64,000 bases of DNA from Candidatus Auribacterota bacterium (GTDB taxonomy: Bacteria; Auribacterota; JAFGBW01; JAFGJP01). Position numbers and translations under genes: made by a program. Shown here one piece after another: positions 2,342-55,670 of this stretch (position 1 is the stretch's first letter; the number at the start of each line of letters is the position of its first letter). Below the pieces are notes generated by a model. The model was not told the origin of the DNA. It made no database searches and saw only the letters and a list, made by a program, of their open reading frames with translations. Where the stretch lies: contig JAGLFH010000037.1 of NCBI GenBank assembly GCA_023144635.1, forward strand, positions 26,489-90,488. The letters run 5' to 3'.

Positions 2342-2347
2342 TATTTT

Positions 2348-2479
2348 ATAAACAAAGCTTAATTATGGCTATAATCTCTTTAAAGAAATCAATAAAGTAG
2401 AATCAGATAATTACAAAGTCAGAGACTCCCTCGCATCTTTCTTATAATGAAATAGATCATTTTTTTTAAGCTTTGTTTA
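2348..2479. repeat. inverted-repeat-flanked element (15-bp arms ATAAACAAAGCTTAA / TTAAGCTTTGTTTAc)
   Basis: Arms at 2348-2362 and 2466-2479 enclose about 100 bp that includes a unit repeated again at 2839-2880. Confidence 0.4.
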
Positions 2480-2689
2480 CCTAAAGGCAAGCCCTCTGCA
2501 CTACATCTGCTTTGTTATCAAACATTTCCAGTATAAGAATACAGCACAATGTTTGATGCCTCACATCTGCAGCGCATTTGACTTGTAAAATACTATTTCC
2601 TTTAAATATTTCTTTCATAAATAAAGCTGAATAAGAAACATAAACTCTTTAATCTAAGTCAATTGTCGATAGTCCATAGACCATAGCCA

Positions 2690-2760
2690 GAAATCAGAGG
2701 TCAGAGAACAGAAGAAAAGAAAAAACAAGATACAAAATAAAAAAACATCAAACCAAATTT
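2690..2760. repeat. T-depleted purine-rich low-complexity tract
   Basis: cagaaatcagaggtcagagaacagaagaaaagaaaaaacaagatacaaaataaaaaaac; similar tracts at 25366-25660, 37290-37350, 50485-50625. Confidence 0.45.
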
Positions 2761-3156
2761 AAAATCTCAAACAAATACTATTTCCTTTAAATATCTTCTA
2801 CATAAACAAAGCTGAATTAGAAATCTAACCCTTTTGAGCAAATCAATAAAGTAAACCCAGACAATTACAAAGTCAGCCTTGCAGCACATAAAATTAAATT
2901 CCAATAATCAAAAAAACAAATAACAAAACAAAATCCTAAAAGCCGTCATTCGGGTTTCGTGAATGGAACGCAAGGGTAAAGCACCAAGAACACAGATACA
3001 AAATTTATTATTTATTCATAGGCGAAGGCGGGTGCTAACAATTTAAATAAATAAAAAAAAGAGGCAGAACTTGAATATCTGATAGGTGGAAGAAGAAGGG
3101 TCATCAATTCAAAAGTCCTGCCTCACACGGCCGCCATCCTTGGCCGCAAATCTATA

Positions 3157-3333
3157 TTAAACTATTAGTTGTTTGGCATTTTCATTTTTTTCAAATAAGG
3201 TCTGGGCTTTTGCCTCCTCTGATATATAAGTTAAAATAGATCCCATAAAAGCAATTAATGATATAAAAAAGCCTATATAAAGCAGCAGCTTATTAATAGA
3301 TATATTGATTTTTTTTTCAGCTATGTCCAGCAT
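3157..3333 (-). CDS. small hypothetical membrane peptide (58 aa)
   Basis: ATG at 3333-3331 with GGTGG-like SD; translation MLDIAEKKINISINKLLLYIGFFISLIAFMGSILTYISEEAKAQTLFEKNENAKQLIV has one TM helix; lies inside the 1.3-kb intergenic region; below the ORF-track size cutoff. Confidence 0.15.
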   Translation of the reverse strand: MLDIAEKKINISINKLLLYIGFFISLIAFMGSILTYISEEAKAQTLFEKNENAKQLIV

Positions 3334-3645
3334 ATATCCCCACCATTAATTAATTAACACTTTTATATATTAGTATTATACCATACTTTTCATAAAAAAT
3401 CAATTAAACCAGTAATTTTCATTGTTATGCCTTGCAATATAACCACTTATAGCTACTTTAAAATTATCTAGATATATTATATTATTTTACAAATAGTCAT
3501 ATTGTTGATTATTTTGCTTAACAATTAGTTTTTTAAGAGAAGCAGGCCCTAAACCTATTCTATTTTGCTTATTATAACGTGTTTTTTAAGCTATATAATG
3601 TTTGATAGCTTGAATTAAACAGGAAAATACTCTATATTATTTAGA

Positions 3646-4422: not shown

Positions 4423-5513
4423 AATTGGAAAAACCAATACACATTATATACAGCCTTTCCGGTGAAGGAAGAGGGCATGCAACCGTTGCTCTTGCCATTC
4501 ACAAAGAGCTTACCACCCGACTCCCTCTCCTTAAAATCCATTATTTTTGCGGTGGAAAAGCTTTTTATTTTTTAAACGAATCAGGATTGGATGTAACTAA
4601 AATACCTCACTTAAGTTACTCTTATAAAAAAGGTGCAGTAAAGCCTTTTTCTACCTTTTTAAAAAATTTAAGGATCATGCTCAACAAGAAAAACTTCATT
4701 TCAATAAAGGAACAAATCATAAGTTTTTCACCGGTACTTTGTTTATGCGATTTTGAATATTTTGTCCCAAAAATTATAAAGAAGCTGAAAATACCCCTTA
4801 TAAATATAAACCATCAGGGCATTATTACAGAAACAAAATACCCTGTACCTTTAAAAGAAAGATTAAATCACCTTTCCGCTGTTTTAGGAATACATATGAT
4901 CTCATCTCGCGCTCTAATCAACATCATTACTTCCTTTTTTATACCTCCAGTTAAAAAAAATAAAAAAAATAATATCTTTGTCGGACCAATAATAAGAGAA
5001 AACATTGAAAACTCTAGAAAGACAAACTTAAAAAAGGACTTTGTACTTGTTTATGTCATGGATGAATCTTTTAGCTGGATAGAACCTCTTCTTAGTGAAA
5101 TAACAGAAGAAAATTTTATTATTTCAGGGTTCCCAGCAGCAGATGGTAAAAAACATAAAAACATAATACACAAAAAAATAGATCCTGATGTTTTTCTTGA
5201 AGATCTAAAAGATTGTAAATGCGTTATTGCCACATCAGGGCACACTTTGATTGCCGAAGCACTTGCTCTCCAAAAACCTGTTTTAGCACTTTATCAACCC
5301 AATCAGTTCGAGCAATTTTTAAATGCACACTTTCTGGAAAATATGGGTTACGGTAAATCAATAGAAGCTAAAGGAAATATACTGCCTTCCATTAAAAACT
5401 TTTTGAAAAATATTCCAAGATTTGAAAAAAATATTAAAAACTGTTTTTCTACAGGTAATGCAAAAACAATAGATATCATAATAGAAGAAATAAGAAACAG
5501 AAAAGGCTATTAG
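4419..5513 (+). CDS. glycosyltransferase (MurG/GT28-like fold)
   Basis: 364 aa; N-terminal SGEGRGHATVALAIHKEL glycine-rich loop typical of GT-B (MurG-like) enzymes; TTG start forced by an upstream in-frame stop; overlaps amidase stop by 4 nt. Confidence 0.5.
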   Translation: MKLEKPIHIIYSLSGEGRGHATVALAIHKELTTRLPLLKIHYFCGGKAFYFLNESGLDVTKIPHLSYSYKKGAVKPFSTFLKNLRIMLNKKNFISIKEQIISFSPVLCLCDFEYFVPKIIKKLKIPLININHQGIITETKYPVPLKERLNHLSAVLGIHMISSRALINIITSFFIPPVKKNKKNNIFVGPIIRENIENSRKTNLKKDFVLVYVMDESFSWIEPLLSEITEENFIISGFPAADGKKHKNIIHKKIDPDVFLEDLKDCKCVIATSGHTLIAEALALQKPVLALYQPNQFEQFLNAHFLENMGYGKSIEAKGNILPSIKNFLKNIPRFEKNIKNCFSTGNAKTIDIIIEEIRNRKGY

Positions 5514-5622
5514 CCACAGCCTGTCTCGCCATAATCTACCAAAGGTGGACGAAGGCGGGGGGGAGACACATGAAAGCGTAGTGCGTGTGATGCGTTGAGA
5601 GTGGTGCGTTCAAGGTGCTTCC

Positions 5623-5666
5623 TTTCACGTGACCACGTTGACACGTGGAACGTGACTCACGTGGCG
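5623..5666 (+). repeat. CACGTG-rich 41-nt repeat module (copy 1)
   Basis: ctttCACGTGaccACGTtgacACGTGgaACGTGactcACGTggc; 41/41 identical to 37382-37422. Confidence 0.7.
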
Positions 5667-5774: not shown

Positions 5775-5806
5775 TACACGGGCACAGCACGCTGTGCCCC
5801 TACTAC
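5775..5806 (+). repeat. REP-like hairpin unit (GTAG-palindrome on complementary strand)
   Basis: tacacGGGCACAGCacGCTGTGCCCctactac; 9-bp arms. Confidence 0.65.
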
Positions 5807-5811
5807 TTTTA

Positions 5812-5850
5812 CAGTGGTACGGGCAGGCGCCCCCGCGTACCGCTGCTCAC
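5812..5850 (+). repeat. REP-like hairpin unit, degenerate
   Basis: cagtGGTACGGGCAGGCGCCCCCGCGTACCgctgctcac; imperfect palindrome. Confidence 0.45.
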
Positions 5851-5918
5851 TTTTTATATTTTTCTTTTCTTTTTTATTTTATTTTAATGTCGTCGAAGAC
5901 ACCATTATTTTTATTTTT

Positions 5919-5950
5919 TTTACATGGGCGAAAGATTTTTCGCCCCTTGT
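5919..5950 (+). repeat. REP-like hairpin unit
   Basis: tacatGGGCGAAAgattTTTCGCCCct; core identical to 55368-55395. Confidence 0.7.
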
Positions 5951-6023
5951 ATGTTTTCACAATTCAGGTAACATCAGAGAAAATATGGGACGCAGATCAA
6001 TAGGATTAAGAGCTTTATTATCT

Positions 6024-6060
6024 TTCACACGGACAGGGACAAGCCCTGTCCCTACATACT
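6024..6060 (+). repeat. REP-like hairpin unit
   Basis: cacacGGACAGGGacaagCCCTGTCCctacatac. Confidence 0.7.
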
Positions 6061-6147
6061 TTTACTTTCTATGGTTCATGACTCTGTGTTCTCTGTGAAC
6101 GTGCTAAAAGTCCGCCGGGGCGGGTGGTGTGAAAGGCTTTTGCTTTT

Positions 6148-11700: not shown

Positions 11701-11750
11701 TCTTTTGAAGACGAAGATAATCAAGATTAATGAGTGAATTTAATAATATA

Positions 11751-11791
11751 CTACAAAGGACAGCATTCAAATGCTGTCCTTTGTAGTTTTT
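11751..11791 (+). terminator. intrinsic terminator-like hairpin (16-bp perfect stem, 4-nt loop, T5)
   Basis: ctacaaaggacagcat-tcaa-atgctgtcctttgtag followed by ttttt; ends 8 nt before the rlmN ATG. Confidence 0.6.
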
Positions 11792-12907: not shown

Positions 12908-13717
12908 ATGATAAAAAAACGTTTAAATGTTCATTTATTACAATTTTCAATTTCCTGGGAAAAAAGGGAAAAAAATTTTAAAAAAGTCTTATCGATTTTA
13001 AAGAAAAACCGCATTAAAAAAGGAAGCATTATCTGCCTTCCGGAATATTTCGCAACAGGGTTTACATTGAATTCGCGTAACCTTGCCGAAGATGAAAAAG
13101 GACCAACATCATCATTTTTATCCTTCCTTGCCAAAGAATATAGCTCTTTTGTAATAGGCTCATCAATAATAAAAACAAGTAATAAAAAAAGGCCAACCAA
13201 CAGTGCACTTGTCTTTTCTTCCAATGGGAAAAGAATTGTTCGTTATGACAAGTCTCATCTTTTTACACCAGGCAAAGAAAAAACATTTTATTCAAGAGGC
13301 AAAAATATTTCTACATTTAAGGTAAAAGGGAAATTGTTTGCAGTTGTTATCTGTTTTGACTTAAGATTTCCTGAACTATTCAGGATACTTTATGAGAAAA
13401 ATGTAACCGGTATATTTGTAATTGCAAACTGGCCGGAGACAAGACATCACCACTGGGAAACACTTCTTCGAGCAAGAGCAATTGAAAATCAGTGCTTTAT
13501 TTTTGGAGTAAATAGAAAAGGTTCCTCGCCTTACCAAAACTATAAAGGCGGTACTTCAATTATAGGCCCTTTTGGAAATATTATAGAAAGTTCAGGCAGG
13601 AAAAATATGATTTCTGCTGAAATAGATATTAACAATGCAGATAATGAGAAAAAAAGATTTTCAATAAAGAATGATAGGGCTTTTGATACTTATAAAAAAT
13701 ATAATCCATATAAGTGA
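12908..13717 (+). CDS. carbon-nitrogen hydrolase (nitrilase superfamily)
   Basis: 269 aa; catalytic Cys context ICFDLRFPE and overall Nit/omega-amidase-like layout. Confidence 0.8.
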   Translation: MIKKRLNVHLLQFSISWEKREKNFKKVLSILKKNRIKKGSIICLPEYFATGFTLNSRNLAEDEKGPTSSFLSFLAKEYSSFVIGSSIIKTSNKKRPTNSALVFSSNGKRIVRYDKSHLFTPGKEKTFYSRGKNISTFKVKGKLFAVVICFDLRFPELFRILYEKNVTGIFVIANWPETRHHHWETLLRARAIENQCFIFGVNRKGSSPYQNYKGGTSIIGPFGNIIESSGRKNMISAEIDINNADNEKKRFSIKNDRAFDTYKKYNPYK

Positions 13718-13733
13718 GGACAGAGGGAAGAAC

Positions 13734-13790
13734 AGTTAATTGGTTTACTTGTTAAATAGTTAACTGGTTCAAGGAGCACTGAAGCGCGAT
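13734..13790 (+). repeat. intergenic repeat module (CAGTTAATTGGTT...GTTAACTGGTTCAAGGAGCACT)
   Basis: About 55-nt module also at 50633-50690 (+) and 46503-46557 (-). Confidence 0.6.
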
Positions 13791-13846
13791 AATTATAAAA
13801 AAAAAGATAACTGTGTAAGGAAAAATTACAATTTACATTTTGCGTG

Positions 13847-13885
13847 GATCCCGCGGTTAAACACGCGGGATGACATACGTTTTGG
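13847..13885 (+). repeat. hairpin repeat module (GATCCCGCG...CGCGGGATGACATACGTTTT)
   Basis: 8-bp stem atcccgcg/cgcgggat; second copy at 43281-43316 has the same stem and a different loop. Confidence 0.55.
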
Positions 13886-13982
13886 TTTCGAATTTTAAAC
13901 CTTTTACGGGGGTTGCTTCGTCGCAATAAATCACAATGATTTACTGCTTCTCGCAATGATAACGTTTTCTTTTTTATTACTT

Positions 13983-14020
13983 TTTATACGGGCGTATTGC
14001 AATACGCCCCTACATACTTT
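13983..14020 (+). repeat. REP-like hairpin unit
   Basis: tacGGGCGTATTGCAATACGCCCctacatac; perfect 20-nt palindrome, identical to 48090-48109. Confidence 0.75.
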
Positions 14021-14134
14021 TATGTTTTTCTCTTCGTGGTTTTTGTGGTTAATTAAAATAATGCGTCGCAGACACCATAATTTTAAGTACTTTAGCTCAC
14101 TTTAGGCATTTAAAACTTTATATATCTGTCTTAC

Positions 14135-14509
14135 CTAGGCGGGATTTAAAACTTCTGAAATTTTACTGATCACATCTTCAAATTTGAAAGGTTTTACTAT
14201 ATATCCTGCTGCTCCTACCTGCAACGCCTCTTTTAATTCCTCGACAAGAGATCTACCGGAAATCATTAGAACAGGAATATCCTTTGTTAAATCATCTCTT
14301 TTTAATTTTCTGCATGTTTCAACTCCGTCTATCCCGGGCATTTTTCTATCAAGCAATATTATATCAGGCCTACTTGTTCTCGCTTTTTCTATACCCTCTT
14401 CACCACTGCCTGCCTGAATAACTTCATACCCATTTTTCTGGAGGTCAAACTTAAGAATAAACCTTAAATCCTCTTGATCATCAATAACTAAAACCAGTTT
14501 CTTATCCAT
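14135..14509 (-). CDS. response regulator, stand-alone receiver domain (CheY-like)
   Basis: 124 aa; VIDDQEDLRF ... ILLDRKMPGIDG ... KDIPVLMISG ... KPF receiver motifs. Confidence 0.85.
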   Translation of the reverse strand: MDKKLVLVIDDQEDLRFILKFDLQKNGYEVIQAGSGEEGIEKARTSRPDIILLDRKMPGIDGVETCRKLKRDDLTKDIPVLMISGRSLVEELKEALQVGAAGYIVKPFKFEDVISKISEVLNPA

Positions 14510-14606
14510 AGTACAAAAACTCTTTTTTTTATTAAAATTTTATTTGTAGCTCAATCATAAAATAACAGTTTCTAAAAATTTTATCAATAAAACTATTATT
14601 TTATCG

Positions 14607-15914
14607 TTAGAATCCATATACAAGCGGATCATAATTTAAGATACTTAATATAGCCTGTGCCGCTCCTATCACACTTAAATTACCTTTTTTAGGAGTATTA
14701 AAACCATGACCTTTCGGCACATCCGGTAAAGTTGCATAAGGATAACAAAAAGTCCCATTATCATCTATTGCAAGCTCCATCATGCTTTTCAATAGTTCAA
14801 GCCTTTTTTTGGAGTATCTATTTGATCTTTCATTTTTACCTAACCTTTCAAAATCACTTGATAATCTTTGATATGCATTTATTAGCTGAAATGTCCACTC
14901 GGGTGATACAAGCACTTCTCTATTTAACTTTTTGGCTGTTTTTTTATCAATAAAATCAGCACCTTTTACGAAAACTTCTTTCCCGTCAGGCTTTATAAAA
15001 CTTACAATGGATACACAATTATTTTCTACAAACTCAATAATATTTATCGCAAGTCCGGCCTCTATAGTATCCAGCACTTCCACACCAAGAGCTGAAATAC
15101 CCCAAGTTTGAACATCTGTAGCAACATTTTCATCAGGTTCCTTTCTGCAACCTCTATTAAATCGTTGCTGGGTTTTATTAAAACCCGCTTTTTTTATCCA
15201 AATTAAAATATTTTTATTAGCAGAATTGTATTTTTCATTTTTTGTTTCCTGATAAAGCAAATTAAACAAAGCATATGCATCTATGTTATGCTCGGTTGCA
15301 AAGATTTCCGTAAAGCTATAATCCGGCATTTTTTCAAAAATATCTGAAGTTACGATTGCCTGATCCTTTGGATATATAGGGTCTCCCTTTGGCCCCAAAG
15401 GGATGCCACCGTAATTAATATCTGTTTTATCCTTATTCTGTAAAGATAAATTAAAATCAGCTAGCTTAATGGCAAAACTTAAGTATTTCTTCTCACCCGT
15501 TGCTTTATAAAGATGAAAAGATGCAATTCCCATCCAAAGGTTCTCACCAGACCATACAAGCCAGCTTACTCCTGCATTAGGTTCATACGCAAAAACCCCA
15601 CCTATAAGCCCTCCTAGTCTCCATACATTTTCTTTTGACATATAAAGATCTATTATTTTTTTTGCCTTATCAATGTTACCCGATGCAGTATAAGCTAAAG
15701 CTACCACTGCCGCATCATAAGTAATACACCATTTTTCAAACCTTTTATCACCAACATGGCTATATGGAAGACCGGTATCAGGATCAGAGTTCTTTGTTAT
15801 CCATTTTAAAAAACCATCAATATTGTTCTTATATAAATCTGCATGGATCTCTTTAAAACAAAAAGTAATTGCAAATAAAATGATAAATAAAATAAGTTTA
15901 TAATTAGGTTTCAT
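14607..15914 (-). CDS. hypothetical secreted protein
   Basis: 435 aa with N-terminal signal peptide (MKPNYKLILFIILFAITFCF); no family recognised by eye. Confidence 0.5.
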   Translation of the reverse strand: MKPNYKLILFIILFAITFCFKEIHADLYKNNIDGFLKWITKNSDPDTGLPYSHVGDKRFEKWCITYDAAVVALAYTASGNIDKAKKIIDLYMSKENVWRLGGLIGGVFAYEPNAGVSWLVWSGENLWMGIASFHLYKATGEKKYLSFAIKLADFNLSLQNKDKTDINYGGIPLGPKGDPIYPKDQAIVTSDIFEKMPDYSFTEIFATEHNIDAYALFNLLYQETKNEKYNSANKNILIWIKKAGFNKTQQRFNRGCRKEPDENVATDVQTWGISALGVEVLDTIEAGLAINIIEFVENNCVSIVSFIKPDGKEVFVKGADFIDKKTAKKLNREVLVSPEWTFQLINAYQRLSSDFERLGKNERSNRYSKKRLELLKSMMELAIDDNGTFCYPYATLPDVPKGHGFNTPKKGNLSVIGAAQAILSILNYDPLVYGF

Positions 15915-15943
15915 ATTAGAAATTGATTGAAGAGATTAATTTA

Positions 15944-16195
15944 TCAGATAGAACTGTCATCTAATATTAAAACAGGTTCAACTAACTCAGATTCTATCCA
16001 TATTTTGTGATTATTTCCGAGATTTGGTATTCTTCCGAGTTTGACTTCAATATGCCCATCAGGGCTTACGTTTGTAACTTTTAGAGCTTTGCCTACATTG
16101 TTTTCAAGATATGATACTATTTCTTTTGATAACTTATAGACTTCTTCCGGCACTTTCAGCATTTTAACAAAACCGCCTACTTTTAATTTGCTCAT
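15944..16195 (-). CDS. hypothetical protein (83 aa)
   Basis: ORF co-directional with neighbours and tightly spaced; no recognisable motif. Confidence 0.4.
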   Translation of the reverse strand: MSKLKVGGFVKMLKVPEEVYKLSKEIVSYLENNVGKALKVTNVSPDGHIEVKLGRIPNLGNNHKIWIESELVEPVLILDDSSI

Positions 16196-16343
16196 TTTTA
16201 TTACCTTTTCTAATTAAATATTATGTTTAAGAAAATCGTGTCCAGAGTGGACTTTCAAGTTTTAATAATACAATTTTTGGTTTAAAATCCAAAGAAATAA
16301 TTAAAACACTAATTCTCCATTAGTTTTTTCATTTTCATCCTTT

Positions 16344-17069
16344 TTAAATTTTCTTTTGTTCTTTATTATACCAGAGTAAAGAACAAACCGATTTAAAGCA
16401 TATTCCAAAAGGAAATAGAATAAGAACAAAAACCATTAAAAAAGCACGTATTGGATTTTCTATTCTTCTATTTGATGTAGTTACAGGATGATCGGTAATT
16501 ATATCAAATGACATTTTTCTTTTTTTACCCCAAACAAACATATTTCTTGAAAACCATATTTCCTCACTTGCATAAACTTTCTCGCTAAATCCTCCGATAT
16601 CATCAAACGCTTGCCTAAGGCAAAAAACAAAACACCCTGCAGCTAAAGAAAATTTTACTGATGCAAAAGTCCATAGACTCATAAGAGTTCCTGCAAAAAA
16701 ACCTATTGGTTTATCCATTGTTACGATTACTCCGCCGCCACAACAAGTTCCTGTTGATAATTTTTTTAAAGCATCTTGTAAAAGATCTTTTGATAAGACA
16801 GTATCTGCATCTAAAAAAACAAGATATTTACCCTTTGCTATATTTCCACCTTTATTCCTGGCACGTGATATCTGGTTTACTGGTTCAAAAACTACCTTTG
16901 CACCATACTCTTTCGCTACTTTAGAAGTTTTATCAGAAGAATTGTTATCAACAACAATGACCTCACCCAAAAAATCTATTTTTTTCATAGCTTCATTTAA
17001 TGCTTTTAAAGACTTTGGAAGCCAAGTCTCTTCATTAAAGCTGGGAATAATAACAGAATAATCGATCAT
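16344..17069 (-). CDS. glycosyltransferase family 2
   Basis: 241 aa; YSVIIPSFNEE ... VVDNNSSD ... FLDADTV (GT2 DxD region) plus C-terminal TM. Confidence 0.8.
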   Translation of the reverse strand: MIDYSVIIPSFNEETWLPKSLKALNEAMKKIDFLGEVIVVDNNSSDKTSKVAKEYGAKVVFEPVNQISRARNKGGNIAKGKYLVFLDADTVLSKDLLQDALKKLSTGTCCGGGVIVTMDKPIGFFAGTLMSLWTFASVKFSLAAGCFVFCLRQAFDDIGGFSEKVYASEEIWFSRNMFVWGKKRKMSFDIITDHPVTTSNRRIENPIRAFLMVFVLILFPFGICFKSVCSLLWYNKEQKKI

Positions 17070-17452
17070 TTTGAGATTAATAGATCCAGGATAACAGCCA
17101 GTATCGACATAAAGAAAATAAAAAAGTAGTTAATACCTTCTTTTGTTTTAACAAGAGATGATAATATGTATGAAATAAGATACCTGTCTTCAACAGAAAT
17201 CTCCTTTTCACATTCTATTTTTGCAATAAGATCATTTTTTCTGATTATTCTTTTTCTTTTTTTAGATATATAACCTCTATATGCAAAAAAATAGATATAA
17301 CCAATAACAGCAAAATACCATACAGGCCTTACAAGGTGGGGATAAAGCTTATCTATAACAGTAAGTGAGCGGAAACAAGCCGCACAAATAATACCTATAA
17401 TAAAGGTGAAAATTATAACCAGTCTCGAAGCTGTTTCAGGTTTTTTATTCAT
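17066..17452 (-). CDS. small integral membrane protein
   Basis: 128 aa, hydrophobic N- and C-terminal segments; stop overlaps the GT2 start (ATGA), suggesting co-translation. Confidence 0.5.
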   Translation of the reverse strand: MNKKPETASRLVIIFTFIIGIICAACFRSLTVIDKLYPHLVRPVWYFAVIGYIYFFAYRGYISKKRKRIIRKNDLIAKIECEKEISVEDRYLISYILSSLVKTKEGINYFFIFFMSILAVILDLLISK

Positions 17453-17533
17453 TTTTTAAATTTTAGACTTATTTTAGAATACTTGCAATGATTAGAAATA
17501 AAGAGAAAACAATTTATGAAGGATAGAAATGAA

Positions 17534-18010
17534 TTATCTTTCTTCTATAATGTACGTATAACGTCCGTTATCAGTTAGCCGGAATGTGCCTGTAGATAAG
17601 TCACCATCATCAAGTAAAGAATCAAGTGCTTCAAGCTCATCTGTAGTAGCTTTTGTTTCAAAAAGAGCTATACCTGCATAATCATAACCGCCGCCTTCAC
17701 CCCATGAAGGCCCCTCCCAGTTATAACTACCTCCTAAAGCATCTGAATTCCAGCTATTTTCAGTTATATACCCCTGCATACTGGCCGGATATATAAGGTG
17801 AGTATCAAGAGGATATTTCCCTTCTTCCATACAGTACATCTGGAAAGCATCAGCAAAAACCTTTATATTTTTAGCTACGCGAGCTACTCTGGCATTTTTT
17901 CTGGCCCTTAAAAAAGATGGCATTCCAATGGCAACAAGAAGGCCTATTATCGCTACGACTATCATGATTTCTACTAAAGTAAAACCTGATCTTTCGTATA
18001 TTTTTTTCAT
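17534..18010 (-). CDS. prepilin-type pseudopilin (type II secretion / type IV pilin-like)
   Basis: 158 aa; N-terminus MKKIYERSGFTLVEIMIVVAIIGLLVAIGMP is a prepilin cleavage/methylation signal (G-FTLVE). Confidence 0.8.
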   Translation of the reverse strand: MKKIYERSGFTLVEIMIVVAIIGLLVAIGMPSFLRARKNARVARVAKNIKVFADAFQMYCMEEGKYPLDTHLIYPASMQGYITENSWNSDALGGSYNWEGPSWGEGGGYDYAGIALFETKATTDELEALDSLLDDGDLSTGTFRLTDNGRYTYIIEER

Positions 18011-18179
18011 ATTTTATCCCAGCTTCTATTTTTATTCGTAAAACACTAGTACAACAGCATTAACAACTTTACATAAAATTTGAAAAATATATATTTATTC
18101 TTATAATATTATACAATTAAATACATTAAAAAGGAAGTCTTTGACTGCTTTTTTGAGTGTTTTTTTGTAAAAAAACAGC

Positions 18180-19256
18180 TCAATTTTCATACTCAAGATA
18201 TCTGTAGGTATGCTCTTTTAACATATAAACATATTCATCTGAAATAACAGTATTTTTTTCGGACATTTTATCTATAGTCCATGCAAACTGAGACATAAAA
18301 GGAACAGCAAGATTATACTCATTTTTGAGCCACTTTTTGCTGCCGATGTTCATAACCTGCAAATCTTTTAGTTGATCATTTTTTAAAACCTGTGCAAGCT
18401 CCTTAACTGAAAGCCAGTTACTTTCTTTATCTTTTACTATCGCTCCATAATCAGTATCTATCATAAGCCATCTTTTTGAAGATGTTGATAACACTTCACT
18501 GACAACATGGCCCACTTCACCTTTTTCAGGTTTTAAATAAATCTCTTTTGTTTTATAGCCACTTTTTGACATCAAAAAGTTTAAGAATTTCGTTATATTA
18601 CCGCAATGTAAGCAAAGAGGCTGATCACTTGCAAAAAATTTTCTAAGCAAATTTTGAGGCACACATGAAGTTGCACCATGCTTTTTCATCATTTCAATTG
18701 AAGCATCGGATTTTGAATGAACAGAGTTTTTTGCAACAAAGGAAGCTATTGATAAAATTTCTTTTTCTACTTCCATTTCATCTTCAAGGATCAATATTTT
18801 AAAGTTACCCATTGTAGTCCTTAAATAGTAATCACCTTCTTCAGGAAAAGTTATTTGTTTTCTATCAAAAATGATCTTACTTATATCAGTACCTTTATAA
18901 TTTCCGGGTACAGGAAATGTCCCGACTATTTCAGGAGGACTCTTTTCAAGAAAAGGCTTAAAGACTTTATCTATATTTGTAGCTATTTCTGACCATTGTA
19001 CTTTTTTCTTTTTAAAGATAAGAAACAGATCATCCGTTACAGGCTCTACAGCTATTTTATCCCAACCGTACCTTACCCCCTTTGAAAATCCTTCCTTTTT
19101 CCCTTCAATAAATCCTGAAGACTTTCCTCGCAAAAAACCTGAATAATATGAAAATATCAGAATTGCGATAATAAATAAAAAGCTTAGAGCAATTGTTCTT
19201 TTTTTTATTTTATTAATTGTTCCCTCCACATTTACAGTGATAACAAGAAGATGCAT
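18180..19256 (-). CDS. hypothetical membrane-anchored protein (start uncertain)
   Basis: 358-aa ORF; the annotated ATG overlaps the upstream gene by 44 nt; an in-frame ATT at 19217 behind GGAGG would give MNKIKKRTIALSFLFIIAILIF. Confidence 0.5.
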   Translation of the reverse strand: MHLLVITVNVEGTINKIKKRTIALSFLFIIAILIFSYYSGFLRGKSSGFIEGKKEGFSKGVRYGWDKIAVEPVTDDLFLIFKKKKVQWSEIATNIDKVFKPFLEKSPPEIVGTFPVPGNYKGTDISKIIFDRKQITFPEEGDYYLRTTMGNFKILILEDEMEVEKEILSIASFVAKNSVHSKSDASIEMMKKHGATSCVPQNLLRKFFASDQPLCLHCGNITKFLNFLMSKSGYKTKEIYLKPEKGEVGHVVSEVLSTSSKRWLMIDTDYGAIVKDKESNWLSVKELAQVLKNDQLKDLQVMNIGSKKWLKNEYNLAVPFMSQFAWTIDKMSEKNTVISDEYVYMLKEHTYRYLEYEN

Positions 19257-19518
19257 AAAAAGCTCTTATTGGTATTCCGTAAAAATGTTTCCCGCATTTC
19301 GGGCATTTTGAACTTATGGAATATGTAGCTACAAATACACCTGACATTACAAATGGCATTATAAGTAGCGGATTAAATCTTATATTTTTAATTTCTGTAA
19401 CTACAGCTACAACTATTATTGCTAATAACATCAAGCCAAAGAAGCCAAGTCCTAAAGTTCTTTTTCTATTAAGTTTTTTTATCTCAAGAGAAAAATCTTT
19501 TTCTATTTCTTCTGTCAA
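19213..19518 (-). CDS. small membrane protein with C-terminal zinc-ribbon
   Basis: 101 aa; TM segment then CPKCGKHFYG...CYHCKCGG. Confidence 0.45.
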   Translation of the reverse strand: MTEEIEKDFSLEIKKLNRKRTLGLGFFGLMLLAIIVVAVVTEIKNIRFNPLLIMPFVMSGVFVATYSISSKCPKCGKHFYGIPIRAFYASSCYHCKCGGNN

Positions 19519-19533
19519 AACTAACCTCCTTTT

Positions 19534-19935
19534 TTATACTTCTTTTGGAAATTCATTTTCTACTACATCAATCAATTCAAAAGATTCAACTTCTAAAGAA
19601 TAGTAAATAAAACTGCTTGTATACCCTTGCTCATATTTGGAAACCGGTTTCACTTTTTTAATAGAAAGAACACCAATAATACGTACCAATTTACCTTCCG
19701 TATGTTTCTTTAAATATTCTTTTCCTGAAAGATATATCTTATCACCAGATGATAGAACAACTCTTTCACCAAGCCCTTTAGCAAAAGCACCCCATGCTAT
19801 ACCATCTATCTGAATACGTTTTCCAACAAGTGGTTTAATAATATGGTCAACATCTGATATCCTTTCATCAGCAAAACAAACAGTACTGATAAAAAGTAGA
19901 AATATTATAATAGTTGCTTTCATTCCCCTCTCCAA
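19534..19935 (-). CDS. hypothetical secreted protein
   Basis: 133 aa with signal peptide (MKATIIIFLLFISTVCFA). Confidence 0.5.
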   Translation of the reverse strand: MERGMKATIIIFLLFISTVCFADERISDVDHIIKPLVGKRIQIDGIAWGAFAKGLGERVVLSSGDKIYLSGKEYLKKHTEGKLVRIIGVLSIKKVKPVSKYEQGYTSSFIYYSLEVESFELIDVVENEFPKEV

Positions 19936-20341
19936 TAAATTTAAATTAACTGAGTTGTTAATTCTTTAATTTTAATAAAAGTTCCTCCAAACTATTATTC
20001 ACAATCTAAGTGTGCTGTATATGCAAGGCATCACATAAAAAGATAAACTTATTTAACTTTGTCTGTTGTCTGTAGCTTTTAAGAACTTAGTGTGTTTTAA
20101 ATGTGAGGCTTGCGAGTGAATATGACGCAAGCGTATTTTTTCCATACGCTGAGGAATCTTTAGCGAGTATAACGAAACAGTTGAAATTCAATAAGTTCTT
20201 AAAAGCTATAGACAGACTCCGTCCCTCTAACTTACATTAAAACACACTAAAATATTATATCATAATGTACTTAATATTATTTAAAAAAACAGGAGTGAAA
20301 CAGAAATTTAAAAAGCATTTAAGAACTTCGTAAGCCAGGTT

Positions 20342-20719
20342 TTATTCGCCAATAAGCTTTATGACTTTATCGGACATAATATTCGGGGTGGTGCTTAACT
20401 TTACACAAAAATCATCAGCACCTAATTGACGGCCTTTTACTACTTCTTCACCACTTGATTTTCCGGTTAAAATAATAACAGGAATATCTTTTGTTATATC
20501 ATTTTGCTTCAGTTCCTGTAATACTTCAAAGCCATTTTTGTCAGGAAGCATAATATCAAGAAGAATAAGATTGGGCTTTTGTTCAAAAGCAGATTTCAGA
20601 CCAGCCTCTGCTGTCTGCTCATACATGATCAGGAATCCTTTCGCTTCTAATGAAGAACCCATTACCATGCGGACAGTCGGACTGTCGTCTATCAATAAGA
20701 TCTTTTTTATTTCAACCAT
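20342..20719 (-). CDS. response regulator, stand-alone receiver domain (CheY-like)
   Basis: 125 aa; LLIDDSPTVRM ... ILLDIMLPDKNG ... KDIPVIILTG ... DDF. Confidence 0.85.
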   Translation of the reverse strand: MVEIKKILLIDDSPTVRMVMGSSLEAKGFLIMYEQTAEAGLKSAFEQKPNLILLDIMLPDKNGFEVLQELKQNDITKDIPVIILTGKSSGEEVVKGRQLGADDFCVKLSTTPNIMSDKVIKLIGE

Positions 20720-20781
20720 TAAAATTAATATAAATAAATTATAAAAAGAAGTAAAGGTTAAAGTAATTTGTTAGTTTGTAT

Positions 20782-22092
20782 TTACTTCAAATTTTCAATC
20801 ACAATAACATCTTTTTTTCCGCATTTATCACATTTACTAACATTAAGGCGTTTTTTAAATAAAGCAGGCCTTAATGATTCACGCGTCTTTTGCTGTACAT
20901 TTCCACATGTTGTACATTTCCCCTTAAAGAACACCTTACCATTTAAAGCATCATCTTTTACAAGTAATGCACCATGAAGATTAACAGATCCTTTTTTTGC
21001 GATTTTTTTGACTTGCTTATCTTTAACTTGATTGGACTCTTCCACAGCAGGTACTGAAGATACAACTTTTGGACTCTTCTTTGAAAAAAGTGCAAAAAGA
21101 ATAACAGCAATAATAAAAACAAAGAATACACCGGAGAGAACATAAAACATCTTTTTAATTGAAGGAGAAGATGCTTCCTTACTCTTTTCTGGTGCAGAAG
21201 CTTCCTTCTTTTTCTGGGGCAAAACAGTAATAATTGTTCCAAGATCAGTATCTGCTTTCTTTTTCTGATTTGGACTTATACGTAACAGATTTTTATCTAA
21301 CTCCTTAACAACATCCTTAAAAGACTGAAAACGGTCTTCAGGTTTTACTTTTGTCATTTTGAAATAAATACGCCTTAAGAAATCAGGAGTGTCAGGATTT
21401 AAATCTTTAGGATCCGGACGTGAAGTATTTAAATGCTGTTGAATAACCGTATAAAGGTCACCCTTAAACGGTTTCTTTTTTGTAAGCATAAAATAAAGAA
21501 TAACACCTGTTGAGTAAATATCGCTGCGACTATCCACATCTGCACCATTTATCTGTTCAGGGCTCATGTAATAAGGTGTCCCTAAAAGCTTTCCTGTTCC
21601 GGTAAGTGTTGAATGTGTATCAATTGCCTTTGCAAGACCAAAATCCATGACCTTCAATACTCCTGCGGAAGTTACCATTATATTTGAAGGTTTCATATCT
21701 CTGTGAACGATCTTTCGTTTTTCAGCCTGAAAAAGTGCTTCAGCAATACTTTTCATTATCAATGCCATTTCCTTTGGCGAGATCAATGGATTATCAAGGA
21801 TCTTTTTCTGAAGAGTTTCTCCATCAACGTACTCCATTACAAGATAAAGGTTATTATCTTCCTTACCGGTATTATAAATTTGAACAACATTGGAGTGGTT
21901 TATTCGTGCAGCAGATCTTGCTTCTCTTATAAAACGCTCTTCATAATCTCTTTCTTTCACAAACTGAGAAGATAAAAGTTTTAGAGCTACTTTCCTGCCA
22001 AGGGATAACTGCTCGGCCTCATAAACAATGCCCATACCCCCTTCACCGATTTTCCGAATTATCCTGCATCCGCCTATTACTTTATCTTTCAT
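20782..22092 (-). CDS. serine/threonine protein kinase with TM segment and C-terminal zinc-ribbon
   Basis: ORF track extends to 22137; Met at 22092 gives MKDKVIGGCRIIRKIGEGGMGIVYEA. HRDMKPSNIM, DFGLAK, SPEQ Hanks-kinase motifs; TM near residue 330; C-terminal CTTCGN...CDKCGKK. Confidence 0.85.
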   Translation of the reverse strand: MKDKVIGGCRIIRKIGEGGMGIVYEAEQLSLGRKVALKLLSSQFVKERDYEERFIREARSAARINHSNVVQIYNTGKEDNNLYLVMEYVDGETLQKKILDNPLISPKEMALIMKSIAEALFQAEKRKIVHRDMKPSNIMVTSAGVLKVMDFGLAKAIDTHSTLTGTGKLLGTPYYMSPEQINGADVDSRSDIYSTGVILYFMLTKKKPFKGDLYTVIQQHLNTSRPDPKDLNPDTPDFLRRIYFKMTKVKPEDRFQSFKDVVKELDKNLLRISPNQKKKADTDLGTIITVLPQKKKEASAPEKSKEASSPSIKKMFYVLSGVFFVFIIAVILFALFSKKSPKVVSSVPAVEESNQVKDKQVKKIAKKGSVNLHGALLVKDDALNGKVFFKGKCTTCGNVQQKTRESLRPALFKKRLNVSKCDKCGKKDVIVIENLK

Positions 22093-22251
22093 AGAGTACC
22101 TTTTATAAATTTTAATACAGAAAAGCATGTAAAGCAAATGATTTGTGGGACTTATAAAAAATAAAAAAACCTCTAATATCGAAAAACAGAGTCGTATATA
22201 TAATTTTTTTAGTGCGAATTAATCTTTTATCTTATAATATTAAATATAATC

Positions 22252-25919: not shown

Positions 25920-25967
25920 CTATCGCAGATCCGCCAGCGCTTTGAGGAGGACTCACTTTTTATTTTG
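25920..25967 (+). repeat. intergenic repeat module (CTATCGCAGATYCGCCAGCRCTTTGRGGAGGACT)
   Basis: Three copies in window (25920, 28432, 41733 inverted), each preceded by a GC hairpin and containing GGAGGACT followed by a T-run. Confidence 0.6.
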
Positions 25968-26169
25968 TTGTTTTTCACTTGAAACCTCGAATCCTTGAAC
26001 TCTTTTTTTCTACTTTCTACAATTACAATTGACAAATAAAATACTGATTGTTAACATAAAAATTCAACTGATTTATTAGTATTTATTTTTACGTAAAAAA
26101 ATTTATAATTTACTGCTGTCAAATAAGTTATTTCAACTTCTAGTAAATTTATTCTCGGAGGGAAACATA

Positions 26170-28408: not shown

Positions 28409-28431
28409 TTCGTAATTGGCGGATTTATAAT

Positions 28432-28480
28432 TCGCCCCTATCGCAGATTCGCCAGCACTTTGTGGAGGACTAACTTTTTT
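28432..28480 (+). repeat. intergenic repeat module (CTATCGCAGATTCGCCAGCACTTTGTGGAGGACT)
   Basis: cgcccctatcgcagattcgccagcactttgtggaggactaactttttt. Confidence 0.6.
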
Positions 28481-28483
28481 ACC

Positions 28484-28520
28484 GTTTTACAAGGGCGGAT
28501 TTAGAATCCGCCCCTACATA
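28484..28520 (+). repeat. REP-like hairpin unit
   Basis: acaaGGGCGGATTtagAATCCGCCCctacata; identical core at 55528-55548. Confidence 0.75.
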
Positions 28521-29269: not shown

Positions 29270-29421
29270 ACTATTTCTCCTTTTTATTATTATGTTTATA
29301 AATACAGTAATCCAGTTACATAAAAAAATCAAAGGATTTCCGAATATTGGATAAAACAAAAGAAGCATGTTTCATAAGTTATTCGCTTATAAAACATGCT
29401 TCTGATAAAATTTAAATTGAA

Positions 29422-33715: not shown

Positions 33716-33990
33716 GACTCAATAAAACGTGGTGCGTGATGCGTTGTGAGTTATGCGTTCAAGGAGCACTGCGTAATAAAAAACGTCATTCGTCGTTCGG
33801 GATTCGTGGTTCGTTCAAGGAGCGCTTCCGCCTTCGTTAAAACTATGGCGAGACAGGAAAGCGAGATAAAAAAACATTAAAAGCGTGATTCGGGGTTCGT
33901 AGTTCGTAAATGGAGAGAACACAGAGTCATGAACCACGTCCTAAACCACATAGGGTTCAGGATAAACAGAAAAAGTAAAAGGTAAAATGT

Positions 33991-34025
33991 GAGTAGGGTT
34001 CTGGCCTGCCTGAACCGTGTAAAAG
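33991..34025 (-). repeat. REP-like hairpin unit (inverted orientation)
   Basis: Plus strand gaGTAGGGTTCtggcctgcctGAACCgtgtaaaag; identical core at 43158-43187. Confidence 0.6.
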
Positions 34026-34231
34026 ATAAAATGTGAAAGTAAGAAAGGGTTACAGCGTTCAAGGTTATTCGATGGAGTTTATTCTGAGCGGAGTCTAAGA
34101 TCCATTCACGAAGAACACGAAAGACAAATTACGAATACCCCTATTTTCTCCCCCTCTGTCCTCTGCTTTCCGGGCTTTTTCTTCAGTCTTGAGTCTGGTG
34201 TCTTGAGTCTTGAGTCTTACATAAAAATCCC

Positions 34232-37240: not shown

Positions 37241-37381
37241 AAAAGTGTTGAGTGTTAAGTTTTGAGTGATGAGTTGAAGGAGCACTTCGTGCGAAGATAG
37301 ATACAAGATACAGGATAAAAACAAGAACAGAAGACAGAGGACAGAAAGAATAGAATTACATTTAACAAATTATTGAGGTTG

Positions 37382-37424
37382 CTTTCACGTGACCACGTTG
37401 ACACGTGGAACGTGACTCACGTAG
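37382..37424 (+). repeat. CACGTG-rich 41-nt repeat module (copy 2)
   Basis: Identical to 5623-5663; lies between purL and purF. Confidence 0.7.
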
Positions 37425-37547
37425 CACCCTACTGCTTAGCTTTGCAAGCAAAACTAAGCAAAAATCAGAGTTCGCAATAACGAAATTTTACTTTTATATT
37501 TAACTAACAACTAACTTGAAAAACAATTTCTACTAAAAGCTAAAATT

Positions 37548-41691: not shown

Positions 41692-41732
41692 AAGAAGCAG
41701 AAGCTATTTAGACACGAAGAAAAAAAGATATA

Positions 41733-41795
41733 AAAGGTAGTCCTCCACAAAGCGCTGGCGGATCTGCGATAGGGGCGATTCATGAATCGCCCAAT
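41733..41795 (-). repeat. intergenic repeat module (same family, inverted) with perfect 20-nt palindrome gggcgattcatgaatcgccc
   Basis: Plus strand aaaaggtagtcctccacaaagcgctggcggatctgcgataggggcgattcatgaatcgccc; lies between purH and purD. Confidence 0.6.
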
Positions 41796-43084: not shown

Positions 43085-43154
43085 GATAAAAAAAGCAAGA
43101 AAGTCGTGAGTCAAAAGTCCATAGTCAATGGTTAGAGGATAAAAGGTAAAATAT

Positions 43155-43190
43155 ATGTAGGGTTCTGGCCTGCCTGAACCGTGTAAGATA
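43155..43190 (-). repeat. REP-like hairpin unit (inverted orientation)
   Basis: atGTAGGGTTCtggcctgcctGAACCgtgtaag. Confidence 0.6.
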
Positions 43191-43200
43191 GTGAAAAAGT

Positions 43201-43235
43201 AAGTAGGGGCGCTGCTTGACTGCGCCCGTGTAAAA
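43201..43235 (-). repeat. REP-like hairpin unit (inverted orientation)
   Basis: aaGTAGGGGCGCtgcttgactGCGCCCgtgtaaaa; same GGGCGC/GCGCCC stem as 25785-25805 in opposite orientation. Confidence 0.65.
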
Positions 43236-46312: not shown

Positions 46313-46360
46313 ATTTATTTTTTCTCTTTTCTATTCGCCGTTAATTCGTGGTTCCTTATT

Positions 46361-46395
46361 TTTTACACGGTACGGGCAAGCCCGCACCCTACTCA
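46361..46395 (+). repeat. REP-like hairpin unit
   Basis: ttttacacGGTACGGGCaaGCCCGCACCctactcac. Confidence 0.6.
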
Positions 46396-46502
46396 CATTT
46401 TACTTTCATCATGAACCCTATGTGGTTCATGCCCCTTTTGTGTCCTTCCCTTTGATTTACTTTATTCACTCAGGACAGGATGGCGGTGAATTTTATAATA
46501 AT

Positions 46503-46557
46503 CGCACGAAGTGCTCCTTGAACCAATTAACTTTTTAACCAGCTAACTAATTAACTG
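46503..46557 (-). repeat. intergenic repeat module (CAGTTAATTGGTT... family, inverted)
   Basis: Reverse complement reads cagttaattagttagctggttaaaaagttaattggttcaaggagcacttcgtgcg. Confidence 0.6.
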
Positions 46558-46683
46558 TTTCCATCTATGTCCGTGCTGAATTTTCATTCTTTTTAAACTT
46601 CTTATACATAGATATAGACGATCAAAACACATAAATATTTCATAAAACAACAGAAATTCGCTGGCAAGGTCAAAGATTAAGAA

Positions 46684-48082: not shown

Positions 48083-48120
48083 CATACACGGGCGTATTGC
48101 AATACGCCCCTACTAACTTT
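48083..48120 (+). repeat. REP-like hairpin unit
   Basis: cacGGGCGTATTGCAATACGCCCctactaac; identical to 13990-14009. Confidence 0.75.
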
Positions 48121-48155
48121 TTACTTTTCCATTTGTGGCTAATTGCCTTTTGTTC

Positions 48156-48195
48156 TTTCACACGGACAGGCACAGAGACCTGTCCCTACATATAT
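48156..48195 (+). repeat. REP-like hairpin unit
   Basis: cacacGGACAGGcacagagaCCTGTCCctacata; identical core at 55483-55504. Confidence 0.7.
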
Positions 48196-48261
48196 TTTAT
48201 TTTTTATTTTAATGTCGTCGAAGGCTCCTTTCACGAACACCAAACGACGAACCACGAGTTT

Positions 48262-50484: not shown

Positions 50485-50625
50485 TGATATAAAAATCAGA
50501 TGACAGAAGACAGAGGGCAGATAACAGAAAACCACATGATTCGTCTTTGGCGAAAACGTGGCTTCGCAGAGGATAGAAGATAGAAAAAGCAAGAGAAAAA
50601 CACAAGATTAAGGCAAAACAGAAGA
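50485..50625. repeat. T-depleted purine-rich low-complexity tract
   Basis: gatgacagaagacagagggcagataacagaaaacc...ggatagaagatagaaaaagcaagagaaaaacacaagattaaggcaaaacagaagaaaaag. Confidence 0.45.
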
Positions 50626-50632
50626 AAAAGAT

Positions 50633-50690
50633 CAGTTAATTGGTTAACTCATTAAAAAGTTAACTGGTTAAAGGAACGCTCCGCTGATTA
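50633..50690 (+). repeat. intergenic repeat module (CAGTTAATTGGTT... family)
   Basis: cagttaattggttaactcattaaaaagttaactggttaaaggaacgct. Confidence 0.6.
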
Positions 50691-50953
50691 TTATAATAAT
50701 GACCAAGGAAAAACACGAGAGGAAAAGTAATTCGTGGTTAATTAATATTATATCGCCGAAAGCTCATTAATTTCACATTTTCTGGTTTTTTTACCTGGCT
50801 TCCGCGGTCTCTCCCAACAAGATGGCGGACAAGTAAACTACGTGATGACAACATTATACGTTTTACTTTTATCTTTTAACCATTTACTATGGACTATTGT
50901 CTATCGACTATTTTTGTTTTTTCTATTATCTGCTATCTGCCTTCTGATTTCTG

Positions 50954-55365: not shown

Positions 55366-55400
55366 ATTACATGGGCGAAAGATTTTTCGCCCCTACTACT
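55366..55400 (+). repeat. REP-like hairpin unit
   Basis: tacatGGGCGAAAgattTTTCGCCCctactac; identical to 5926-5945. Confidence 0.7.
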
Positions 55401-55476
55401 TTTTACCTAGATTCCTGCCTAGCGGCAAGGTCGCTGGCATTCGCAGGAATGACATACGTAATAGTATTTTGTGCTT

Positions 55477-55515
55477 TTACACGGACAGGCACAGAGACCT
55501 GTCCCTACATGCGTT
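55477..55515 (+). repeat. REP-like hairpin unit
   Basis: ttttacacGGACAGGcacagagaCCTGTCCctacatgcg. Confidence 0.7.
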
Positions 55516-55517
55516 TA

Positions 55518-55555
55518 CATTTTACAAGGGCGGATTTAGAATCCGCCCCTACACA
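55518..55555 (+). repeat. REP-like hairpin unit
   Basis: ttttacaaGGGCGGATTtagAATCCGCCCctacacac; directly abuts the previous unit. Confidence 0.75.
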
Positions 55556-55670
55556 CTTTTTACTTCTTACTTTTTTCCTCTGATTCTTTTTTATCCTGTA
55601 AATCCTGTCTAAATTTATAATCATCAGCGAAGGCGGAAGACTCCTTGACCTATCACCTATAACCCATTAC

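Follow-up and report, generated by a model that had tools for sequence, protein, structure and literature searches.

A MITE is defined by terminal inverted repeats set round a short non-coding core of less than about 200-400 bp (PMC3184786). Among elements of this type ERIC, Correia (NEMIS) and RUP, whose features we use here as summarised in PMC3184786, are about 100-160 bp long and non-coding, and each consists of a long imperfect palindrome that would give a long RNA hairpin; they are found at the 3' ends of genes, differ between close strains and occur in regions of genome plasticity. BIMEs (REP clusters) and the pneumococcal BOX element are instead built of short modules, present in both orientations, which offer several competing pairings. 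Competing pairings are also the basis of attenuator and riboswitch platforms, in which a segment has alternative partners, while the arms of an H-type pseudoknot follow one another in the order a, b, a', b'. We describe here a bacterial intergenic spacer that has something in common with all of these systems. Taken at face value, its interleaved 20-bp helices would point to an unusual pseudoknot or a large RNA switch. We propose, with a probability of about one half, that the spacer is a recombination-scarred patchwork of partial copies of palindromic intergenic repeats, of the ERIC/BIME/MITE kind, lying at a strain-variable junction; should the helices come from repeat modules reused at a synteny breakpoint that varies between strains, the pseudoknot or switch reading would fall away.

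The window, by which we mean the whole 64-kb stretch of DNA analysed, belongs to a metagenome-assembled genome of Candidatus Aureabacteria (= Auribacterota). The interleaved repeats lie within a 406-nt spacer (19936-20341) flanked by two genes:

20342-20719, minus strand: response regulator, 125 aa
19534-19923, minus strand: hypothetical protein, 129 aa

The response regulator has a Ser/Thr kinase gene upstream, and the 129-aa gene has a downstream block that includes a pseudopilin-like gene and a glycosyltransferase. The spacer was found in identical form in nine contigs, which come from several samples and two assemblers, and it is therefore not an assembly artefact. Its only ORF of 45 aa or more (45 aa, 20103-20240) was considered as a small protein and rejected, there being no homologue among 1.84 billion representatives. 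The elements of the spacer, from left to right, are as follows:

20006-20029: Y0, a third Y-like box, 75%
20061-20089: X, outer left arm; core 20067-20089, with 20061-20066 lengthening the pairing with one indel
20087-20107: Y, inner left arm, also called the 'box' (TTAGTGTGTTTTAAATGTGAG); its minus-strand reading, GCCTCACAT...CACACTAAG, resembles the 3' arm of the M family, introduced below
20109-20133, plus strand: local hairpin GCTTGCG-11 nt-CGCAAGC, followed by GTATTTTTT
20132-20150: local hairpin GCGTAT-TTTTTCC-ATACGC, from direct reading and folding
20177-20191: Y'', weak partner of Y, nested and adjoining X' on its inner side; -9.1 (plus) and -2.4 (minus) kcal/mol as a duplex
20192-20220: X', outer right arm; core 20192-20214
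20231-20250: Y', inverted copy of the box, outside the palindrome; complementary to Y and, on the minus strand, also to Y0
20254-20262, minus strand: TGATATAAT, candidate extended -10 promoter-like element, picked out by eye as a consensus match only
20314-20331, direct orientation: X'', third copy of X (89%), polymorphic, just past the stop codon of the response regulator

The first-pass annotation had described two inverted repeats in the interleaved order X, Y ... X', Y', and direct reading of the sequence bears this out. X and X' form a 23-nt inverted repeat with one mismatch, whose pairing can be extended with an indel to 20061/20220, and Y and Y' form 20 pairs (19 Watson-Crick and one G-U/C-A position) with one bulged A; X and Y abut, with an overlap of 3 nt. 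In both repeats the single imperfect position is G-U on the plus strand and C-A on the minus strand. As a statistic for these repeats we used local alignment, RNAduplex of the whole spacer against itself being uninformative. The scores are 41 for X:X' and 30 for Y:Y', whereas 150 dinucleotide-shuffled versions of the spacer gave 20.7 +/- 2.8 (maximum 31) for their best inverted repeat and 18.0 +/- 1.6 (maximum 22) for the second best. Both inverted repeats are thus real and non-random, standing far above the shuffled spacers. The duplex energies are -34.4 (plus) and -29.1 (minus) kcal/mol for X:X' and -24.0 (plus) and -22.3 (minus) kcal/mol for Y:Y'. The earlier description was otherwise correct, but had placed the right-hand partner of Y a few bases too far to the left (20223-20246, the actual Y' being 20231-20250); the two local hairpins that it reported between the arms are both present, at 20109-20133 and 20132-20150.

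Once Y'' is taken into account, X and Y on the left and Y'' and X' on the right are the two arms of one imperfect palindrome of about 150 nt (20061-20220), the whole 38-nt arm being 84% complementary. This is the part of the spacer that shares length, lack of coding capacity and hairpin-forming structure with ERIC, Correia and RUP; like them it also follows the 3' end of a gene, in a plastic genomic region. The suggestion of a MITE-like insertion, which had been made for the locus, can be weighed against it. The ends are those of a MITE, with 23-nt repeats that carry one mismatch and enclose 102 bp of non-coding core. Moreover, the palindrome resembles a small family of long intergenic hairpins, and the spacer varies between strains. 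However, unlike ERIC, Correia and RUP, the element showed no target-site duplication, TA flanks or cognate transposase. No direct repeat is shared by the flanks of 20061/20220 or of 20067/20214. The segment 20034-20232 is bordered by similar decamers (TTTTAATGTA / TTTTTATGTG), and the other allele carries different DNA and no empty site. A scan of 36 window ORFs turned up neither a transposase nor a recombinase domain. Nor were many near-identical copies seen, either in the 64-kb window or, at the stringency searched, in public collections, and membership of the classic MITEs is not established. Of the two inferences drawn by the first-pass annotation, the MITE-like insertion nevertheless comes closer to what was observed than a dedicated leader.

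The family in question, which we call M, was newly defined in this analysis and consists of an intergenic, imperfect long hairpin of about 125 nt. Its copies, leaving aside the spacer itself, are the following:

2466-2591, plus strand: M1, complete M-family hairpin, the other full copy in the window
contig L009, 18-142: complete copy (M2) in a strain-variant contig, which carries a co-occurring strain's form of this spacer
contig L023, 875-1001, minus strand: copy in a Desulfobacterales-like contig
contig L054, 1612-1717, plus strand: copy in a Desulfobacterales-like contig, found with the covariance model

The family came to light because of a strain-variant contig: the private sequence of L009, together with the part shared with the window (20033-19990), is 68% identical to window 2449-2598 (E = 1e-13), and the differences between the two are compensatory changes in a hairpin. 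A pattern made from the conserved blocks led to the element in two JGI contigs (L023 and L024), which carry an endonuclease V gene closest to Desulfobacterales; in L054 the element lies 41-47 nt upstream of a small HNH (YajD-like) gene. The four M sequences have in common a long hairpin of 37 pairs, of which 17 change on both sides; 90% of the cells are paired, as compared with 28-40% when the partners are slid, and the covariation observed was reached in none of 500 shuffles. The conserved core is CATCTGCTTTGTTATCA ... TGATGCCT. Copies stand upstream of unrelated genes, namely those for the 129-aa protein, endonuclease V and the small HNH protein. Unlike ERIC, Correia and RUP, related copies of M occur in two distant phyla, and in the one orthologous comparison available (L023 against L056, whose orthologous spacer lacks M and has other DNA where M would stand) M looks like a replacement and not like a clean insertion. 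Rfam returned no match for M in the M1 region, L009, L023 or L054 (E <= 10 or 1), and blastn found none in plasmids and phages. A search of viral contigs with the M pattern gave one match, inside a coding region, which the covariance model did not confirm. The motif GCCTYRCAT was tried as a general promoter or operator box and set aside, since 4 matches against 1.3 expected are not significant alone; a further match, at 57770, is in coding sequence.

Two parts of the spacer can be related to this family:

20076-20210, minus strand: M3, the X/Y''...Y/X palindrome as matched by the M-family covariance model, 29.6 bits (R1) and 34.0 bits (R2)
19996-20033, minus strand: leftover 3' arm of a second M copy (M2), containing Y0; nhmmer E = 2.4e-6 (20033-19998)

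The palindrome 20061-20220 is probably a diverged copy of M. Its score rose as the model was improved and corresponds to an E-value of about 2e-5 over 258 kb, which is only roughly calibrated; the same hairpin on the plus strand scores just 8.2 bits. For comparison, the clear members score 79-137 bits and their reverse strands 20-41 bits, while the other long palindromes of the window have no score with the M models. Aligned to M, the palindrome has X' and Y'' in the place of the 5' arm, with CUGUUUCGUU kept against CUGCUUUGUU, and Y and X in the place of the 3' arm, with GCCUCACAU kept; the M blocks are partly preserved (GCCTCACAT in 9 of 9 positions, and TATAACGAAACAGTTG against TGATAACAAAGCAGATG in 12 of 17), and the interior measures 61 nt as against 41 nt in M. 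A sequence-only comparison of the palindrome with M by nhmmer gives E = 0.5, and the homology is thus carried by the one covariance-model match, which counts against the patchwork reading.

The identification of Y0 has the support of a co-occurring strain. Contig L009, from one sample, agrees with the window from the 129-aa gene as far as 20033; the identity ends at 20033/20034, and at the exact place of Y0 L009 has a full M2. From the other side, a contig of a variant strain (L022) reaches 20233 and carries Y', and the end of this contig and the start of L009 align across the junction to the continuous M1 locus. These sequences suggest a variant strain that lacks 20034-20232 and has an intact M2 instead.

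On this basis we propose that the interleaved repeats are a by-product of the patchwork. X and Y on one side and Y'' and X' on the other would be the two arms of M3, a diverged member of the M family; of M2, which the co-occurring strain keeps whole, only the 3' arm would be left here, as Y0; and Y' would be a further copy of the arm box, inverted and placed in the neighbouring flank. As there are three such boxes, Y' finds one complement in Y, in a pairing interleaved with X:X', and another in Y0, in a pairing nested outside X:X'. No other copy of M is flanked by a complement of its 3' arm as this one is (-26.9 kcal/mol here, -17.0 +/- 3.2 kcal/mol in shuffles). The interleaving is therefore peculiar to this locus, whether by accident or by innovation, and does not characterise the family. 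If the spacer is transcribed, either at the 3' end of the kinase/response-regulator operon or at the 5' end of the 129-aa operon, the long X:X' hairpin should be the dominant structure, and by analogy with ERIC, Correia and REP it might act as a barrier or processing site affecting mRNA ends.

The surroundings of the spacer are consistent with a junction of this kind. Orthologues of the response regulator in other Auribacterota contigs (67-75% identity) are followed by short, unrelated spacers and then by different genes, and homologues of the 129-aa gene (60-69% identity) have other neighbours and unrelated upstream DNA, with no synteny. The gene order in relatives is kinase, CN-hydrolase, response regulator, with Rhomboid and RlmN-like genes nearby. 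In the window these neighbour genes lie about 6.6 kb away, beyond a block of eight genes, and the spacer is therefore a synteny breakpoint. The window is also rich in other families of intergenic repeats, which are described at the end. Against the patchwork stand the failure to find a target-site duplication, a clean empty site or, in the window ORFs scanned, a transposase or recombinase, the small number of copies (at the level of M, one full copy and one remnant in the 64-kb window besides the palindrome), and two observations to which we return, namely a stretch of the spacer free of SNPs and minus-strand folds of nearly equal energy. The state of the Y arms is also awkward for it, as neutral decay of duplicates does not predict a near-perfect Y:Y' beside a decayed inner arm Y''; this combination is compatible with an event in the very recent past or with selection to keep Y and Y' paired.

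Several side observations concern the same region. Comparison of window 12908-22137 with contigs L018, L019 and L021 shows the order around the kinase and response regulator to be rearranged relative to other Auribacterota contigs, and between these genes and the neighbours found in relatives lie the eight-gene block and a second response regulator (14135-14509), which is only 34% identical. That a response-regulator gene and M had recently been duplicated as one segment was considered and rejected, the response regulators being only 29-34% identical. In the contig of one sample (L001 3158-4478, equivalent to window 20782-22137) the Ser/Thr kinase is called as two ORFs (231 and 191 aa), while L002 and L022 have it as one gene of 436 aa and the window has it as one ORF of 451 aa; the split kinase is possibly a strain-level disruption.

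A search for the same arrangement elsewhere had been suggested as a check, and such searches came back empty, both in the 64-kb window and in the genome, metagenome, viral, plasmid and phage collections searched. Within the window a 22-mer of X has two matches, against 0.00 expected, and only at this locus. A 20-mer of X gave 4 matches in a collection of genome contigs (from which the source genome is apparently absent), all of them chance matches in unrelated phyla with no extension; a 17-mer gave 28 in viral contigs, which are chance seeds only. The two-arm X pattern had 0 matches in JGI metagenomes, and blastn of the X/Y element against plasmids and phages had none. No similar sequence was found upstream of the 129-aa homologues or downstream of the response-regulator orthologues. 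Rfam gave no match at gathering scores when the whole window was searched, and over the spacer at E <= 10 it returned nothing but noise, in the form of snoRNA and miRNA models far below threshold; a scan for tRNA and tmRNA found none. A tRNA-like or attachment-site duplication was likewise rejected, there being neither a tRNA nor an integrase. The spacer may also be compared with BIME and BOX. Although it has X- and Y-type modules in both orientations and several competing pairings, and although REP-like, GTAG-headed hairpins are present elsewhere in the genome, its modules are, unlike theirs, of unrelated sequence, AT-rich and longer (about 20 nt), and only one such mosaic was seen.

In the order of its arms the spacer is topologically identical to an H-type pseudoknot, and the pseudoknot that had been inferred from this order is untenable as a compact structure. 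X and Y are joined by a linker of 0 nt and X' and Y' by one of 10-16 nt, while the helices measure 23 and 20 bp; because loops of 0 or at most 16 nt cannot span a helix of 20-23 bp, X:X' and Y:Y' should be mutually exclusive, and in this the spacer is unlike H-type pseudoknots, whose helices coexist. This exclusion is drawn from A-form geometry and not from computation. The companion suggestion of mutually exclusive folds fares better, though only in part. When 20040-20262 is folded under constraint, the plus strand favours the X:X' state (-62.9 kcal/mol, against -53.0 kcal/mol for Y:Y'), whereas the two states of the minus strand are nearly isoenergetic (-47.9 kcal/mol for X:X', or -45.8 kcal/mol with Y' unpaired, against -44.5 kcal/mol for Y:Y'), so that alternative folds are possible there. 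However, in the minimum-energy fold of a longer minus-strand RNA everything is nested, with the Y':Y0 helix enclosing the X':X hairpin.

These folds are the starting point for a first alternative to the patchwork, a two-state cis-regulatory leader on the minus strand, in which the choice of fold would set the fate of the mRNA of the 129-aa operon; we regard it as unlikely. The transcript would start near TGATATAAT, at about 20247 and thus at about Y', would form Y':Y co-transcriptionally, and would then either stay in that state or pass to X':X with Y':Y0. The extended -10-like element just upstream of Y' on the minus strand would agree with this, as would the near-equal energies of the minus-strand conformers, the near-perfection of Y:Y' in spite of its position outside the palindrome, and the presence of a flank complementary to the 3' arm in this copy of M alone. 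Variation between strains may be read in the same direction, since the palindrome is free of SNPs and the adjacent spacer is not: in contig L005 all 3 SNPs fall within 20283-20320, and there are 0 in the 204 nt with X', Y' and the hairpins. (Between-strain SNPs in L005 and L022 cluster in 60 nt by the stop codon of the response regulator, with three in X''.) Against a leader, there is neither an Rfam family nor conservation in related loci, and neither state is linked to an intrinsic terminator or an SD-sequestering helix: on the minus strand the search for a terminator coupled to the alternative folds found only a weak stem of 6 pairs at 20224-20210, and the predicted leader fold pairs the SD with the coding region and not with the X/Y segments. 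Helices of 20-23 bp would probably behave as kinetic traps and not as reversible switches, the single mismatches of X:X' and Y:Y' are both C-A on the strand in question, and the co-occurring strain apparently lacks the segment, yet has the same gene and proximal promoter region. The comparison with attenuators and riboswitches runs along the same lines. Y' has alternative partners, Y or Y0, and Y:Y' excludes X:X', as on such platforms; unlike them, however, the spacer has helices far longer than those of known switches and shows no aptamer, leader peptide or phylogenetic conservation. The dedicated regulatory leader put forward by the first-pass annotation is thus left unsupported.

A somewhat more doubtful possibility starts not from the spacer but from the family, namely that M is a previously undescribed structured RNA, either a cis leader or a small RNA, shared by Auribacterota and Desulfobacterales, and that the present locus is a derivative which has gained a competing 5' strand (Y') and so become a two-state RNA controlling the 129-aa/pseudopilin operon. 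M, with its covarying stems, its lack of an Rfam match and its occurrence in Auribacterota and in Desulfobacterales-like contigs, may be a by-product worth more than the interleaved repeats themselves. Were it a functional RNA or a cross-phylum mobile repeat, M would join the few elements of this sort catalogued outside model bacteria, and it would also mark rearrangement hot spots in these genomes.

An independent small RNA on the plus strand, starting upstream of X and antisense to both flanking genes, is a little less probable again. It would end at the internal hairpin and U-run (about 20145), or else span the whole of the long hairpin. The region folds much better on the plus strand (-64.9 kcal/mol, z = -5.75) than on the minus strand (-53.6 kcal/mol, z = -3.47), all M copies likewise fold better on the corresponding strand, and both single mismatches are G-U on the plus strand. 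Moreover, the hairpin GCTTGCG...CGCAAGC followed by GTATTTTTT looks, from its sequence, like an intrinsic terminator for plus-strand transcripts; the terminator scan passed over it (20109-20133) as the loop limit of the scan is 8 nt. However, no promoter-like site on the plus strand was found upstream of 20061, and two wobble positions are weak evidence, having a chance probability that we would put at about 0.1. The pairs of the M model show no clear strand bias either (9 G-U cells and 6 A-C cells), the pairing Y':Y0 is more stable on the other strand (minus -18.2 kcal/mol, plus -10.4 kcal/mol), and here too there is no Rfam match and no conservation. The strand signals therefore conflict, with X:X' and Y:Y' stronger on the plus strand and Y':Y0 stronger on the minus strand, which is what repeats at the level of DNA with random transitions would give.

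Finally, an inverton, in which a site-specific recombinase flips the 102-bp X-X' segment or the Y-Y' segment and so re-orients an internal promoter or terminator, is very improbable: although a short segment with a directional terminator-like hairpin lies between two pairs of near-perfect inverted repeats of 20-23 bp, and the assemblies of one sample break inside the spacer, all nine contigs that cover the segment are identical and in a single orientation, neither the neighbouring genes nor the 36 scanned ORFs of the window yielded a recombinase, and the strain difference is a replacement and not an inversion.

The patchwork reading sets the spacer among the other repeats of the window, and some of these deserve mention in their own right. 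Window 2342-3645 is a 1.3-kb stretch with no ORF of at least 60 aa, downstream of a response-regulator gene, in which Rfam finds nothing; it contains M1, followed by about three copies of a repeat of roughly 185 nt (2588-2764 and 2773-2941 are 68% identical, and 2348-2422 and 2802-2876 are 79% identical), and there are GC-rich hairpins near 3060-3160. At least four further families of intergenic repeats, 50-90 nt in length and 75-96% identical, are distributed among housekeeping genes (purine biosynthesis, SHMT, acetate kinase):

41722-41795, 28415-28488 and 25920-25973: intergenic repeat family
46491-46566, 13722-13800 and 50609-50704: intergenic repeat family
43140-43209, 33976-34049 and 46356-46427: intergenic repeat family
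37379-37425 and 5619-5665: intergenic repeat family

Many REP-like, GC-rich hairpins are also present, for example at 5780-6070, 48085-48200 and 55370-55570. They have the form ACAYGG-stem-loop-stem-CCCTAC, which on the other strand is a GTAG-headed palindrome, and this suggests a REP/RAYT-type system, although the window showed no RAYT gene. Another Auribacterota contig (L011) has hairpins like these around 4800-4880. Lastly, two near-perfect palindromes of 38-43 nt, at 11750-11787 and 29361-29403 (95% and 84%), may be bidirectional terminators.
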